Virus record (IMG/VR): IMGVR_UViG_3300042291_000666
Coordinates: 1-64,000 of that record
Origin: a virus
DNA: 64,000 bases
Strand: one strand, 5' to 3'
The notes beneath the pieces are model-generated. The model was not told the DNA's origin. It worked only from the letters and a program-made list of their open reading frames with translations, and made no database searches. Of the stretch, positions 2,993 through 59,376 are shown piece by piece (positions within the stretch are counted from its first letter, which is position 1; each line of letters opens with the position of its first letter). The position numbers and the translations under genes are program-made.

Positions 2993-3229
2993 ATGTTTAA
3001 AAAATTATTATATGCAATATGGACTTTTTCATTAGAAAAAGGATATAATTGGGTTTTATCCAAGACAACAATTGATGAAAAAGCAATTGAAGTAATTGAA
3101 GAAATTGAAGTAAGAAGTGTACTAGTTAAAAAAGAACTTAAGGATGTTGTTGATGCAGTTAAAGGTGTGCCAGCTAAACCTAAAAAAAAATATTACAAAC
3201 CAAAAGCCAAAGCAGAATCAAAGAAATAA
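2993..3229 (+). CDS. hypothetical protein with basic tail
   Basis: ORF preceded by the TTGTATATTA motif at 2951. Confidence 0.65.
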   Translation: MFKKLLYAIWTFSLEKGYNWVLSKTTIDEKAIEVIEEIEVRSVLVKKELKDVVDAVKGVPAKPKKKYYKPKAKAESKK

Positions 3230-3231
3230 TT

Positions 3232-3561
3232 ATGGTTGATTTATATAAACTATATAAGTTTTTTAAAGAACAATGGCTAGGCAGTATATTAATTATAGTT
3301 TGGTTAATATCTGTATTTATATACCAGCATAAGAAAGCTGAACTACTTAATAAAGCTTACATTTTAGAAGCTAGAATTAAAGAGTTAGAAAAGAAAGCAA
3401 ATGTTGAATTAAAAAGTGTGGATAGTTTAAAAACCATTGACACAATTATAGTAACTAGAATTAAAATAATCAAACAAAAAGAATATGAAAAAATACGCAT
3501 TATTGATTCCCTTCCTGTTAGTGGGCTTCAAAGCTATTTCACAGAACGTTACCCAAAGTAA
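3232..3561 (+). CDS. putative inner-membrane spanin-like protein
   Basis: N-terminal TM plus coiled coil; overlaps the next gene. Confidence 0.5.
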   Translation: MVDLYKLYKFFKEQWLGSILIIVWLISVFIYQHKKAELLNKAYILEARIKELEKKANVELKSVDSLKTIDTIIVTRIKIIKQKEYEKIRIIDSLPVSGLQSYFTERYPK

Positions 3562-12568: not shown

Positions 12569-13477
12569 TTAATCTTTCATTAAATAGACATCTTGTACTA
12601 ATCTAGAACGTGTTACATCTTCATCTATCTCAATGGCATTTTCATTCCATTCTTGCATAGTAATGTTTAAATCTACATCTTGTGTTGTATCAAACTCAGA
12701 TAAATCCAATGCATCATTCATTGTAATATTCATCTTTGATAAAACTCTGGCCGTCATAAAATCATGAAAGTTTTGGCTATCAGATAACCAATCTCTTGGA
12801 TGAGCTTTCTTTAATGCATGTGTAACGTGATTATAGAACGTCCAAGCATTTTCTTGATCACATTGGTAATCATATGATGGCTTTTCTAACTCAGCTTTAA
12901 CACAAGACATTTGTGCAGCATCAAGGATATCTTCATTGATATAAAGTCTACCTGCAATCTCTGCTTGTTCTTGTAATGATAATTCAGTATTTCTCATTGC
13001 ATCTCTATCAGTAAGGATACGTTTGTAATACTTCTCACCATTCTTGATCTGATTAGAAATTTGCATTCTAATATCATGATCAGCAGAACCAGTATGCTTT
13101 CTTCTAAAGTTCATCATGTCACCGGCCACCATACCATTATGGCAAACCATAACATATGCACCTATTGCGCATTGAAAACGTGTGCTCTTGTCATAAGAGT
13201 TTGTCCAGGCAAACATCATCCCTAACTCTTTCTCCTCCATAATAGTAGGATCAACGGTATTAATTGGTAAGATATGATATATGCCTTGTGCTACATTGGC
13301 ATCCATATTTGCTCTATATAATTCCTTTTGAATAACAAAACCACTATCTGCTAGCAGCTGTATTGTGTTATCTATCACCTGTTTATGTGATATAACTGTA
13401 TAACTTTTACCATGATTTGGTAAGGGTGCGTTTTCTAGGTAATTCCTAGTTGTTTCTTTTGGTTTATTATAACCCAT
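12569..13477 (-). CDS. DUF932/DUF945-like phage protein
   Basis: Y.VISH...NSYDKS..FQCAIGAYVMVCHNGM...RKHTG...WTFYNHVT pattern. Confidence 0.75.
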   Translation of the reverse strand: MGYNKPKETTRNYLENAPLPNHGKSYTVISHKQVIDNTIQLLADSGFVIQKELYRANMDANVAQGIYHILPINTVDPTIMEEKELGMMFAWTNSYDKSTRFQCAIGAYVMVCHNGMVAGDMMNFRRKHTGSADHDIRMQISNQIKNGEKYYKRILTDRDAMRNTELSLQEQAEIAGRLYINEDILDAAQMSCVKAELEKPSYDYQCDQENAWTFYNHVTHALKKAHPRDWLSDSQNFHDFMTARVLSKMNITMNDALDLSEFDTTQDVDLNITMQEWNENAIEIDEDVTRSRLVQDVYLMKD

Positions 13478-13701
13478 AGTATTAAACTTTTAAAGTGTAA
13501 ATGTACAAAAAATGTTTAGATAAACAATAAATAAATCTTAATTGTTTATATTTAATGCATTTGTAAGTGAATATGCATTAGAAGTACCACTTGTTAGAAA
13601 GGTATTTGCATTATTTGTACTACGAGTACTAAGTAATCCATTTCCAAAGTTAACTCCGGTGCTACCAGTAGTAATACTAGTATTGGAAAACACAGGAGTA
13701 C

Positions 13702-13902
13702 TTAAAAATTTCTGATTACAATTTGTACATTGTCAGGATTTGCAGCATGTTCTTCAGGAATTTCTCTTGTGATTTTAAATACAAGATCTTTTTCTGATTT
13801 AGCTAATACTGTGGTTGGTTCAATTATGATTTTTGAATCAACATAATTACCATCTTTGTCATTTTCATGCAAAATTACTGCATACTGAAATAAATTTTTC
13901 AT
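13702..13902 (-). CDS. small phage protein (66 aa) with a possible -1 frameshift extension to 13538
   Basis: ORF ends AGA AAT TTT TAA; the -1 frame stays open for 55 codons. Confidence 0.75.
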   Translation of the reverse strand: MKNLFQYAVILHENDKDGNYVDSKIIIEPTTVLAKSEKDLVFKITREIPEEHAANPDNVQIVIRNF

Positions 13903-13919: not shown

Positions 13920-14189
13920 TTATAATTCTTCTTGAAATTTTTTCTCCCATAACTGTCTTACAGTATAAGGATCTTGAATATAGTTATTCAATGCCGCCAT
14001 TCCTTCAGCTATTGTAGAAAATGGAATAGATTTACATCCTACCTCAATTAGGCATCCAACAGATAAAAATCTAATGTTTATTTGATATTCTCTAAGACAT
14101 TCCATTCTTGATGGTTTGTACTCTTTTACGCAACCAGTCATTTCTCTAAATGCTGGTTCTCTTTGTACTGCTTGATCTTCTTCTTTCAT
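13920..14189 (-). CDS. hypothetical protein
   Basis: ORF track; in operon. Confidence 0.65.
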   Translation of the reverse strand: MKEEDQAVQREPAFREMTGCVKEYKPSRMECLREYQINIRFLSVGCLIEVGCKSIPFSTIAEGMAALNNYIQDPYTVRQLWEKKFQEEL

Positions 14190-14357
14190 TTTGTTTAGTT
14201 TAATTGTTTAATACTATTACTTGCTAACTCATACTGCATTCTATTTGAATTAGTATTTTTCATTTTAGTAATTGTTGAGTGATAGATCTTAGAAATTTCT
14301 TTTTTGCTTTCAAGATTTTCTAAAATACTTTCAGTGCTTGATTTGTAAAATTGTTTT

Positions 14358-14660
14358 TTATTCATTTTTTACAAATTGACCATCAACCATTTTACCGGTT
14401 CTCTTACTAATCACATTGTATGCTGACTCAAGGCATTCTTCCAAAGATAATCCTTGCATTTTTGCTTGAATAATCAATGTAACCATAATGTCCCCAATAG
14501 CATCAATGATCTCAGGTCTATCATTTTTGTTGATTGCTGTACATAATTCTGTACATTCTTCTAATGTTTTTAGTGCTTGAGCCATTGGTGTAGCTTTCTC
14601 TAAAATACCTTTGTCTGCAGCCCATTGTTCTACAACGGCTTCTAATTCAAAATAGTCCAT
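14358..14660 (-). CDS. MazG-like nucleotide pyrophosphohydrolase
   Basis: KTLEECTEL...IIDAIGDIMVTL...AYNVISKRTGKMVDGQFVK. Confidence 0.9.
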   Translation of the reverse strand: MDYFELEAVVEQWAADKGILEKATPMAQALKTLEECTELCTAINKNDRPEIIDAIGDIMVTLIIQAKMQGLSLEECLESAYNVISKRTGKMVDGQFVKNE

Positions 14661-47203: not shown

Positions 47204-48127
47204 ATGAAGATGCTAAAAAGGGGGGATTCTGGACCAGATGTCCAGACCCTCCAATCCAAACTCTTATTAAAGCAGGATGCACAGTTTGGACCCGCAACAG
47301 AAAAAGCTGTAATCAGATTCCAACTATCTAATAATCTGCCAGTTACAGGAATAGTAGACTCAGATATGTGGACATTGTTATTTAACAAAGTACCTACATT
47401 ACAAGAAGCTATTGATGAAGACTCGGATGTATCTCAACAGTTATTTAAAACTAATTTTGATCAGACAATTCATAAGTATTATTTATCTCCAAAAGAATAT
47501 ATCAAAGGACCAATTAAAAATGAATATATATTCTTACATCACACTGCAGGAAATAACAATCCTTTTGCTTGTGTTGATATGTGGAATAAAGATGACAGAG
47601 GAGCCATTGGAACTGAATTTGTTTTAGGTGGTAAAAACTGCCACAATGGAGATGCTAAATATGATGGTAGAATGGTTCAAGCTTTTCCAACAGGAAATCA
47701 AGGTTGGCATTTAGGTTTAACTAAATCAGGTTGGATGAATAGACACTCTGTAGGTTTAGAAATCTGCTGTATGGGTCAACTTACTAAAGATTATAAAACC
47801 TATGTAGGAACCAAGGCTCATCCAGATGAAGTAACAACTTTAAAGGAAGTATTCAGAGGATTTTTAAATTGGCATTCTTATTCAGAGAAGCAAATTAAAG
47901 AAACTGAAAAGTGGATTAAGTATGTTGCTGAAAGAGACAGTATTGATGTAAGATTAGGATTGAAACAATTAATACAAAAGTACGGTGCAACTAAAGCATT
48001 TGAATATAATGAAGATGCAGCTACTGGAAAAATTAAAGGATTACTAACCCATACCAATGTAAGAAAGGATAAGTTTGATTGTTATCCACATCCTGACTTA
48101 GTTGATATGATAATGAGTTTAAAATAA
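47204..48127 (+). CDS. endolysin: peptidoglycan-binding domain plus N-acetylmuramoyl-L-alanine amidase
   Basis: LKRGDSGPDVQTLQ..FGPATEKAVIRFQ..L.VTGIVD; LHHTAG, GWHLG, SVGLEIC, TH..RKDK.DC.P. Confidence 0.92.
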   Translation: MKMLKRGDSGPDVQTLQSKLLLKQDAQFGPATEKAVIRFQLSNNLPVTGIVDSDMWTLLFNKVPTLQEAIDEDSDVSQQLFKTNFDQTIHKYYLSPKEYIKGPIKNEYIFLHHTAGNNNPFACVDMWNKDDRGAIGTEFVLGGKNCHNGDAKYDGRMVQAFPTGNQGWHLGLTKSGWMNRHSVGLEICCMGQLTKDYKTYVGTKAHPDEVTTLKEVFRGFLNWHSYSEKQIKETEKWIKYVAERDSIDVRLGLKQLIQKYGATKAFEYNEDAATGKIKGLLTHTNVRKDKFDCYPHPDLVDMIMSLK

Positions 48128-48498
48128 TGGCTATAGTAAACAAAGTAGATTTAAAATTACAAGTAGATATTAATGAAACCATTAAGTATCAGATACTTAC
48201 ATATTGTTTTTTTGAAAATATTTTAATTAGTAATTCAGATCTTAAATGTTTAATGGAATTATCCAAGCAACCAAAGGTTGAATTAACTAAGTTTTGTATA
48301 TTCTTAACTGAACAAGAAATATTTAAAAGTCCACAATCAGCTAGAAATGCTTTAGCAAAAGCAGAAAAGAAAAAGTTAATAGTTAAAAATGGTGTAAATA
48401 AAAAAACTATTTCAATCAATAAAACTATTAATGTTCAAATAGATGGTTTGGTATTGTTAGACTATAAGATACTAGGCCGTGAATCCAAAGAAGCATAA
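48127..48498 (+). CDS. hypothetical, winged-helix-like protein
   Basis: ORF coupled to the endolysin; SPQSARNALAKAEKKKLIVK. Confidence 0.6.
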   Translation: MAIVNKVDLKLQVDINETIKYQILTYCFFENILISNSDLKCLMELSKQPKVELTKFCIFLTEQEIFKSPQSARNALAKAEKKKLIVKNGVNKKTISINKTINVQIDGLVLLDYKILGRESKEA

Positions 48499-57759: not shown

Positions 57760-59376
57760 ATGGCAACTCCAGTATTAAATAATGGGATTTTCCTAAGAGA
57801 CACTAGCTACAAAGCAAGTTCTCATGTTGATTCTTATCACTTGACTCAGATGCTAGGTTCAGCAGAACCTATGGATATGGGACCAATTGATTTATGGGCA
57901 ATGACTCAAAAAGTTGAAATGCCTCTTTATCAAATGGCATCATTTGGTGGAAAGAATACTATCATGGTAGACAATGCTCGTGGTGAGTACAAATGGCAAA
58001 CTCCTATTGCACAAGATCTTCCATACATTGTGGCAGACATTGAACCAGCTAATGCCGCTAAAGGTGTAGATGGAACAACATTCAAAATTAAAATTTCTAA
58101 AAGAACATTTGGACATGGTGATATCATCACTTATGACAAATACAATGGATTAGAACTTTACATCACAGCTGATGATATCATCCCTGCTGGTGACGGTTTT
58201 ATCTATACTGTTCAATTAGTAAACAACAACAACGTAGCTAGCTTAGACAATAAGTATTTAGCTAAAGGTACTAAGTTCTTCAGAAAAGGTTCTGCAAGAG
58301 GTGAGTACGGAGAAAGATTCTCTGACATTGAAACAGGTTCTGGTTTCCGTGAGTTCTACAACTTTGTAGGAGGAGCTGAAGCACACGTACACTATTCTAT
58401 TTCTAGCCGTGCTGATCTTATGATTAAAGGTGGTTTGAATGCAGATGGTACTGTACCTGTAACTGAAATCTGGAGAAACTTTGGTGCAAACAATGATCCT
58501 GCTGTACCTAGTATTGAAGGATTAATTGCTAACATGGGTAAAGCTGGTGCAAGAGAAGCATTTGAAAATGGTTCATTGACTAGAACATTTATCACTAACA
58601 TGGAAGCTGCGCATTTATCAAAAATTGCTTCTGACATTGAAACTTACTTAATGTGGGGTAAAGGTGGTAGAATCAAACAAGATGGTCCAGATGATATTAG
58701 ATTATCTGTGGGATTATGGGCACAGTTGGATAACTCATTCAAAAGAGTTTACAACAAGTCTTCTTTCACACTTGATATGTTTAAATCTGAATTGTATAAC
58801 TTCTACCAAGGTAAAGTTGAGTTCAAAGGTCCAGATCCACAAAGATCACTTGTTGTTCAAACAGGTATTGGTGGTATGCAATTGATCAACAAAGCTATTG
58901 CTGATGAAGTATATGGTTCTGGTTTAGTACAAAATGCTAGTGATATTGGAGCTGTTAAAGGTTCTGGAATGGATCTAGATTATGGATTTGCTTACACTTC
59001 ATTTACTATTCCTTTCTTAGCTAACGTTAAGTTTGTATTGAACCCTGCGTTTGATAACTTGAATACTAATGATATTGAGAATCCATTAATTGATGGCCGT
59101 CCATTAAGTTCTTATAGCTTCATTATCTTTGACGTAACAGATGAAGGAAATGATAACATCCATTTATTGAAATTATCTTGGGATAATCAATTGAAATGGT
59201 TCTACCAAAATGGAACTATGGATTATATGGGAAGAACTCAAGGTTTTGCATCTACTGGTAACTTCAACGGATACCGTGTAATGATGTCACAAACTATGCC
59301 TGCTATTTGGGTTAAGGATCCAACTAAAGTTTTAAAAATTGTTATGAGAAACCCTATTACTGGTGGTTCATTCTAA
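57760..59376 (+). CDS. major capsid protein (crAss-type HK97 fold)
   Basis: 538 aa, highly biased codons, synteny; LMWGKGG, GLWAQL, TGIGG, IWVKDPT. Confidence 0.9.
   Translation: MATPVLNNGIFLRDTSYKASSHVDSYHLTQMLGSAEPMDMGPIDLWAMTQKVEMPLYQMASFGGKNTIMVDNARGEYKWQTPIAQDLPYIVADIEPANAAKGVDGTTFKIKISKRTFGHGDIITYDKYNGLELYITADDIIPAGDGFIYTVQLVNNNNVASLDNKYLAKGTKFFRKGSARGEYGERFSDIETGSGFREFYNFVGGAEAHVHYSISSRADLMIKGGLNADGTVPVTEIWRNFGANNDPAVPSIEGLIANMGKAGAREAFENGSLTRTFITNMEAAHLSKIASDIETYLMWGKGGRIKQDGPDDIRLSVGLWAQLDNSFKRVYNKSSFTLDMFKSELYNFYQGKVEFKGPDPQRSLVVQTGIGGMQLINKAIADEVYGSGLVQNASDIGAVKGSGMDLDYGFAYTSFTIPFLANVKFVLNPAFDNLNTNDIENPLIDGRPLSSYSFIIFDVTDEGNDNIHLLKLSWDNQLKWFYQNGTMDYMGRTQGFASTGNFNGYRVMMSQTMPAIWVKDPTKVLKIVMRNPITGGSF

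Follow-up and report, generated by a model that had tools for sequence, protein, structure and literature searches.

The window analysed here is a stretch of 64,000 nucleotides (nt), positions 1 to 64,000 of the IMG/VR virus record IMGVR_UViG_3300042291_000666; it forms the beginning of one contig of 118,325 bp from a tailed phage with a guanine-plus-cytosine (GC) content of about 31%. An open reading frame (ORF) on its minus strand encodes a small conserved protein of 66 residues. A single mRNA with this ORF very probably gives rise to two proteins through programmed -1 ribosomal frameshifting (we put the probability at about 0.85, on the sequence evidence set out below). A slippery heptamer directly precedes the stop codon of the ORF, and the -1 frame continues past the stop. 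A preliminary description of the window, made from its letters alone, had proposed this recoding and suggested that homologues be checked for conservation of the heptamer next to the stop and of an open -1 frame. Both were found in most of 77 distinct loci.

The end of the 66-residue ORF reads, codon by codon, ATC (13716-14), AGA (13713-11), AAT (13710-08), TTT (13707-05) and TAA (13704-02). The canonical heptamer A_AAT_TTT at 13711-13705 is in phase directly before the stop, as the preliminary description had stated. The -1 frame reads AAA TTT TTA AGT and onwards; its product is LSTPVFSNTSITTGSTGVNFGNGLLSTRSTNNANTFLTSGTSNAYSLTNALNINN, and its stop codon TAA is at 13540-13538. Re-reading of the sequence gave the same 55 sense codons without ATG that had been described. 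The sole possible start in this frame is a GTG at codon 5 (13693), which would give a 51-residue ORF and is absent from many relatives. The +1 frame is closed after 8 codons. Ser, Thr, Asn and Gly make up 65% of the tail and one of its 55 residues is charged, which bears out the nearly uncharged, low-complexity character ascribed to it. The description had also let the extension fill an otherwise empty gap of 165 nt. The extension does take 165 nt, but the gap from the stop to the next ATG (13477) is 224 nt, and about 60 nt are left.

In the proposed mechanism (Table 1), the majority of ribosomes would stop at TAA and produce the 66-residue protein ending in ...RNF. A minority would slip back by one base on A_AAU_UUU, with AAU in the P site and UUU in the A site. 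The slip would be aided by a stem-loop 5 nt downstream, and possibly by a stop codon that is slow to decode. The slipped ribosomes would then read UUA (Leu) and 54 further codons, leading to a protein of about 121 residues. We infer the actual shifting, its efficiency, the binding by the end motif and all biological roles from sequence.

Conservation of the heptamer and the stop codon

The 77 loci were read at the DNA level and range in GC content from 0.30 to 0.67. Forty-seven came from searches seeded with the window protein or a small alignment (window, viral contigs, metagenome contigs), 29 from a scan of viral contigs seeded with members ending in Arg-Pro-Phe (RPF), and one is an uncultured phage of 735 kb in GenBank (LR756501.1). 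Exact duplicates were excluded, as were L015, L037 and L072 (one contig, with an extension identical to that of L042) and L055, which ends before the end of the ORF.

In 67 of the 77 loci, the stop codon directly follows a canonical heptamer: A_AAT_TTT in 37, C_CCT_TTT in 21 and C_CCT_TTC in 9. Seven others have a near-canonical heptamer, namely T_CCT_TTT (4), G_CCT_TTC, G_GTT_TTT (L060) and A_GCT_TTT, and the stop abuts the heptamer in 74 of the 77 loci. PMC5009743 describes natural frameshift sites with G_GU (in T7 gene 10) and with U_CC; C_CCU_UUU is the site of West Nile virus (PMC11797035).

A profile search of 1.84 billion representatives gave 669 matches at E<=1e-3 and 160 at E<=1e-10. 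The 669 are protein clusters at 50% identity, and the C-terminal endings were counted in the best 150 representatives. In these 150, 134 proteins end in Phe, 109 in RPF and 6 in Arg-Asn-Phe (RNF). The window protein, with its RNF ending, is thus on a minor branch of a family in which RPF prevails. The preliminary description had suggested that similar small phage proteins end in RPF and that C_CCT_TTT could be slippery there. The suggestion about the endings was right, and CGC CCT TTY, with the heptamer C_CCU_UUY, is found in 30 of 34 RPF-type loci.

The codons around the site are constrained in a manner that follows the heptamer. At all 37 A_AAT_TTT loci, the codon ahead of Asn ends in A (AGA, CGA or AAA). 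Among 34 RPF-type loci, CGC encodes the Arg in 30, with about 5.8 of 32 expected from the flanking ORFs, and CCT encodes the Pro in 33, with about 8.9 of 31 expected. This preference for CGC and CCT holds at 30% GC, where CGC is rare, and at 65% GC, where CCT is rare. In other words, the change of residue 65 from Asn to Pro is accompanied by a switch of the silent base in the preceding codon, which is required by a tandem slip and not by the protein.

The same two isoforms might also arise from the slip of a single tRNA in the P site, in which tRNA-Phe would move from UUU to U_UU and the stop codon in the A site would be the main stimulator. Leu-tRNA would then read UUA or CUA, and the first half of the heptamer would count for little. 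The abutment of the stop on the Phe codon in 74 of the 77 loci and the Phe at the end of 134 of the 150 representatives are consistent with such a slip. Loci in which the heptamer has a non-canonical first half (T_CCT_TTT four times, G_CCT_TTC and A_GCT_TTT) still keep T_TT[TC] followed by the stop, and at the C_CCU_UUC loci the lone move of tRNA-Phe from UUC to UUU fits the tandem and the P-site models alike. However, the third base of the codon before is fixed far more strictly than codon usage would explain (CGC in 30 of 34; A in 37 of 37). A tandem slip, in which the P-site tRNA must re-pair, is the only case in which such a constraint is expected, and it counts against a lone slip. In addition, L108 keeps the heptamer though a sense codon precedes its stop. 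As the main route, a lone slip of tRNA-Phe in the P site is rather unlikely, though the adjacent stop may offer a further opportunity for it beside the tandem slip.

Slippage of RNA polymerase on the A3T5 run would put the tail in frame by one extra base, and the site is indeed an A run followed by a T run, at which contigs could miss rare transcript variants. The run is short, however, with T5 in the window and no more than T3 where the heptamer is C_CCT_TTC; known cases of productive slippage in transcription involve longer homopolymers. A polymerase would need neither the strict codon phase of the heptamer nor the covariation of the codon ahead of it, and the RNA-library contigs bridging the site (X15 record 1 and X16 record 4) are without an indel. 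This explanation seems very improbable.

The preliminary description had also advised that reads be inspected for an indel. None is listed at 13700-13711 in the assembled contigs of two further DNA and two RNA-library runs that bridge the site. In a related RNA-library contig, the sole length difference is an insertion of 15 letters within 13590-13620, which is a multiple of three.

Predicted downstream RNA structure and the -1 frame extension

In the predicted stem-loop of the window, ACUCC (13699-13695) pairs with GGAGU (13657-13653), and the inner helices are GUGU/GCAC and UACUAGUA/UACUGGUA. Weak extra pairs lengthen the predicted stem-loop to 13703-13647. The predicted energy is -19.0 kcal/mol for 60 nt, with a z value of -5.8 against mononucleotide shuffles; a fold of 121 nt has a z value of -2.6 against dinucleotide shuffles. 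By prediction, the structure lies at the distance of a stimulatory structure, 5-9 nt downstream of the heptamer. In the relatives, a helix is predicted at the equal place with other sequences, for example GCUCCAUUAU/AUAAUGGAGC, GUCCCAAG/CUUUGGGAC and UCCUCCAAGAUC/GAUCUUGGAGGA. The arm sequences differ among the clades and the 3' arm is 25-130 nt off. The Pro codon of the Leu-x-x-Pro start of the extension forms part of the 5' arm.

The propensity for this helix was evaluated by a duplex test, in which the 16 nt starting 2 nt past the heptamer were paired with the next 125 nt. The median duplex energy was -14.0 kcal/mol, compared with -9.4 kcal/mol for dinucleotide shuffles and -8.1 kcal/mol for the control arm. 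Values of p<=0.05 were obtained at 23 of 43 loci and at 13 of 28 loci of the RPF set, where about 2 and about 1.4, respectively, would be expected by chance.

Of the 73 complete -1 frames, 72 remain open for 45-188 codons; three others run off the ends of their contigs. In the first set, from DNA of about 31% GC, all 44 relatives with a complete -1 frame have it open for 45-108 codons, and the differences in length are always whole codons. The +1 frame, tabulated for the first 43 loci, extends for 1-16 codons in 42 of them, and in the same 43 loci the -1 frame closes 2-23 codons upstream of the site. When 18 close pairs of equal length were pooled, the ratio of nonsynonymous to synonymous polymorphism (pN/pS) was 0.53 in the -1 frame versus 0.94 and 1.08 in the other two, a sign of weak purifying selection on the -1 frame.

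In two loci of GC 0.67, L039 and L040, the +1 frame is long as well, with 178 open codons, and shares part of its DNA with the -1 extension of 74 codons. This +1 frame is probably the next gene, which overlaps the coding region of the tail.

A separate small gene in the -1 frame, with its own start or translated by reinitiation, could use the GTG at 13693 of the window and its 51-residue ORF. On the other hand, the -1 ORF lacks ATG, GTG and TTG altogether in 11 of 43 loci, the Leu-x-x-Pro start against the heptamer is kept in 33 of 35 A_AAT_TTT loci, and in-frame fusions with the 66-residue domain exist. A gene of this kind is considered highly improbable. The least probable explanation is that there is no recoding, and that the region is a decayed fused gene, an assembly indel or non-coding DNA with a conserved RNA structure such as a terminator: the near-neutral linker and the hairpin in the gap would suit it, but 72 of 73 diverged loci of 30-67% GC would not be expected to keep a dead frame open for 45-188 codons with the +1 frame closing within 16 codons in 42 of the 43 tabulated, the C-terminal motif is kept, one relative has a collagen domain, and independent assemblies agree at the site.

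The extension has a recognizable end. An aromatic/small/aliphatic motif is found within the last 16 residues of 62 of 71 extensions and is looser in the RPF branch. Neither the end motif nor the GNVGIGT unit described below was found anywhere else in the 118-kb genome. A likeness of the end motif to the ssrA tag (...NYALAA) was rejected, as the motif does not form the very C terminus.

Some relatives carry comparable sequence in frame. Nine of the best 150 representatives have 14-76 further residues in frame past the domain. P0122 ends in ...TYTLTSAITN, P0125 reads ...KKF-LSNT...SNSYTLTSN..., and P0169 ends in ...KNFNNLISYDYTLTKTL (YDYTLTKTL); the end motif is shared with these three in-frame relatives. 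At the DNA level, L089 reads CGT CCT TTC TTG GAG, which gives RPF-LEQ in frame.

When the region (by blastn) and five family members (by tblastn against 50,697 GenBank phage records) were used as queries, the sole match was the uncultured 735-kb phage LR756501.1, whose record is without any annotation. Its locus (L073, 259365-262556, reverse complement) has, at 1444-2258 of L073, a family member whose ORF ends CGC CCT TTT TAA, with a -1 frame of 188 codons. This frame matches the Pfam family Collagen with 35.6 bits (cut-off 27.2) and also has an IGLGTTNP unit. One GNVGIGT-like unit is found in each of 7 of the 71 other extensions. The unit GNVGIGT[ST]xP occurs about 15 times in P0260, a metagenomic protein of 1459 residues with a C-terminal Peptidase_S74 domain, by which trimeric fibres of phages are recognized. 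The presence of collagen and fibre units in some relatives suggests an elongated and perhaps trimeric tail. The extension of the window itself has neither Gly-X-Y repeats nor a fibre unit.

Several observations weigh against frameshifting at a conserved, structure-aided site. Three of the 77 loci are exceptions: L108 has one sense codon before the stop, L103 has T_CCC_TTT, and L089 is the in-frame fusion. Seven of the best 150 representatives continue for 1-3 residues beyond Phe, and the -1 frame of L103 has 26 open codons only. About half of the loci are above p 0.05 in the duplex test, and L082, L083, L093 and L103 show nothing. RNAalifold found no consensus structure in 20 aligned loci; this is because the 3' arms lie at varying distances and are unalignable. 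Over the whole, poorly alignable extension, the ratio of nonsynonymous to synonymous substitution rates (dN/dS) has an uninformative median of about 0.99 (508 pairs). Judged from the sequences, the linker is barely constrained; conservation is seen in its composition, in its two ends and in the openness of the frame. It should be mentioned that the peptide pattern used in the scan for the RPF set ended in RPF, which means that RPF was selected, and the codons, the position of the stop and the -1 frame were not. The loci are mutually related and their counts are not independent events. Assembled contigs drop rare variants, and the transcript ends, the transcript level and transcription itself are not shown by them.

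Protein family and genome setting

The 66-residue protein has 108 close homologues, mostly of 66 residues. In the gene calls, all 108 near-length homologues stop at Phe or extend only at the N terminus, and a search for longer proteins gave three matches, each extended at the N terminus only. The extra N-terminal residues of some called homologues number 19-70 (for example ...FSLSWMKNAIEDYLKTKEPMEKKK ahead of the domain). Such longer forms are P0011, P0017 and P0034 (85 residues), P0091-P0099, and P0109-P0111 (125-134 residues); the added residues may be genuine, or come from fusion to the gene upstream or from miscalled start codons.

The AlphaFold model of the 66-residue domain has a predicted local distance difference test (pLDDT) score of 88.6 and a beta-beta-alpha-beta fold. 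A Foldseek search with this model gave nothing at E<=0.001 in PDB and BFVD, and the ESM Atlas gave unnamed viral clusters only. The best hits of VIA-align (Z 6.2 for PurS and ribosomal eL20; Z 3.8 for phi29 p6) were rejected, being in the chance range for so small a fold. As modelled, the domain is without a convincing structural relative among solved or viral predicted structures.

In the genome, the minus strand carries the replication arm (DNA polymerase, exonuclease and ATPase) and the plus strand the structural arm (terminase, portal and the major head protein at 57760..59376). The gene for the 66-residue protein is a member of the replication arm, and its immediate neighbours are listed in Table 1. 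In the relatives, the neighbours include RecA and MazG (L036) or PhoH, HNH and GIY-YIG genes (L033). With MazG, DUF932, RecA, PhoH and others as its company, the gene travels with genes of DNA and nucleotide metabolism and not with head or tail genes. Its position argues against a classical virion gene. The preliminary description had held that this is not the familiar frameshift of the tail chaperones, and the neighbours (MazG, DUF932, DNA polymerase and exonuclease) agree with that statement. Moreover, the 66-residue protein and its extension matched no family in Pfam and PHROGs, the tail-chaperone families included.

Table 1. Positions of the recoding site and of its neighbours (window coordinates)
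Feature	Positions	Strand	Remarks
Zero-frame ORF, 66 residues plus stop	13702..13902	minus	small conserved phage protein; ends ...IVIRNF
Slippery heptamer A_AAU_UUU in X_XXY_YYZ phase	13705..13711	minus	proposed P site AAU (Asn), A site UUU (Phe)
Zero-frame stop TAA, abutting the heptamer on its 3' side	13702..13704	minus	first two bases complete the -1 Leu codon UUA
-1 frame extension, 55 sense codons (L S T P ... N I N N) plus stop	13538..13705	minus
Conserved C-terminal peptide SNAYSLTNA of the extension (SNAYSLTNALNINN)	13556..13582	minus	family consensus S-N-x-Y-[ST]-L-T-x-A-L
Predicted stem-loop	13653..13699	minus	core ACUCC/GGAGU; 5-nt spacer from the heptamer
DUF932 gene, 302 residues, downstream neighbour	12569..13477	minus	Pfam 1e-16; starts about 60 nt past the end of the extension
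Two small unnamed ORFs upstream of the 66-residue gene	13920..14189, 14195..14365		between the gene and MazG
MazG gene, upstream side	14358..14660

The whole genome of 118,325 bp was scanned for ORFs of at least 50 codons followed by a heptamer, a stop and a -1 frame open for at least 30 codons, and the site described here was the only credible case. Three other candidates were rejected. The plus-strand ORF of 307 residues at 47204..48127 ends T_TTA_AAA TAA and its -1 frame is open for 124 codons (region 47204-48498); it was regarded as an ordinary gene overlap because an ATG at the junction (...FKIMAIVNK) gives the next ORF a start of its own. A minus-strand heptamer with a stop at about 3180 lies antisense to, and within, the plus-strand ORF 3184..3561. 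AAATTT being palindromic, the plus-strand hit at 13712 simply mirrors the target.

DNA of the window is present in lake and other aquatic metagenomes. No prophage copy was found in a scan of genome contigs.

Comparison with known systems and possible function

The site resembles gene 10 of T7 and T3 (10A/10B), in which a -1 shift near the stop adds tens of residues to a minority of the molecules. T7 gene 10 uses G_GU as the X_XX part (PMC5009743), and L060 has G_GTT_TTT. The N-terminal part of gene 10 is the major capsid protein, whereas the protein here is a 66-residue member of the replication arm; no capsid match was found for the 66-residue ORF, and the head protein sits at 57760..59376. 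The stimulator of T7 gene 10 lies more than 200 nt downstream according to PMC5009743, unlike the nearby stem-loop predicted here. The heptamer of our site, in contrast to that of T7 and T3, directly abuts the stop.

In Lactobacillus phage A2 and the Listeria phages A118, A500 and PSA, a C-terminal extension is likewise added by frameshifting at or near the end of an ORF, and related phages hold the extension in or out of frame, as is the case here (PMC5009743). Their extensions are Ig-like or structural domains on virion proteins, unlike the low-complexity linker with an end motif. In phage lambda, ribosomes slip by -1 on a heptamer shortly before the first ORF ends, which gives gpG in excess and a rare gpGT; the two share an N-terminal domain, and the long form brings a second binding function (PMC5009743). 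The two forms here would relate to each other in a similar way. The present gene differs in that it is not between the tail tube and the tape measure, and its -1 part consists of 55 residues of low complexity and not of a folded T domain. The NS1' site of West Nile virus, C_CCU_UUU (PMC11797035), is identical to that of the RPF-type majority and is followed by a downstream RNA structure; it differs in that it belongs to a eukaryotic virus, is internal to a polyprotein, is stimulated by a pseudoknot and has no adjacent stop.

According to PMC5009743, the conserved frameshifts known in tailed phages are mostly in tail-chaperone and in capsid or tail structural genes. A search of the full-text literature, with subscription journals and supplements outside its scope, found no description of the present family and its recoding. 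To our knowledge, the remaining literature also places conserved frameshifts of tailed phages mostly in tail-chaperone, capsid and tail structural genes. The mechanism is a textbook one; the family and its recoding are undescribed as far as found.

By analogy, the long isoform may follow the logic of lambda gpG/gpGT or of the extended capsid proteins of T7, T3 and A2. The tail would be a flexible tether rich in Ser, Thr, Asn and Gly, and its end peptide SNAYSLTNAL a putative docking motif, so that a small and constant share of the N-terminal domain would be linked through the long form to a second partner. A complex prediction for the domain with the 55-residue tail gave a score of 0.15 (mark 0.32), which counts neither for nor against such a complex. 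A more specific proposal is that the long isoform is a fibre or tether dosed by frameshifting, that is, a degenerate fibre segment whose end peptide plugs the domain into an assembly of the phage or the host, and that the ratio of the isoforms senses the state of translation. Since the heptamer abuts the stop, this ratio would depend on the speed of the release factor and might act as a sensor of host translation. This proposal is speculative and, taken as a whole, unlikely. If the fibre or tether reading were true, it would mean a widespread recoding switch in phages outside the capsid and tail-chaperone genes.

The finding would add a large and old recoded family, with 669 clusters, a GC range of 30-67% and phages of up to 735 kb. 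A tiny protein would exist in two forms, with its recoding signal kept at the resolution of single codons and with the long form missed throughout by gene callers. The natural series of heptamers (A_AAU_UUU, C_CCU_UUY, G_GUU_UUU and U_CCU_UUU) with their hairpins would form a comparative set for bacterial -1 frameshifting beside a stop codon. The conserved end peptide may help to find the partner, and through it the role, of a protein that is abundant among uncultured phages of fresh water.

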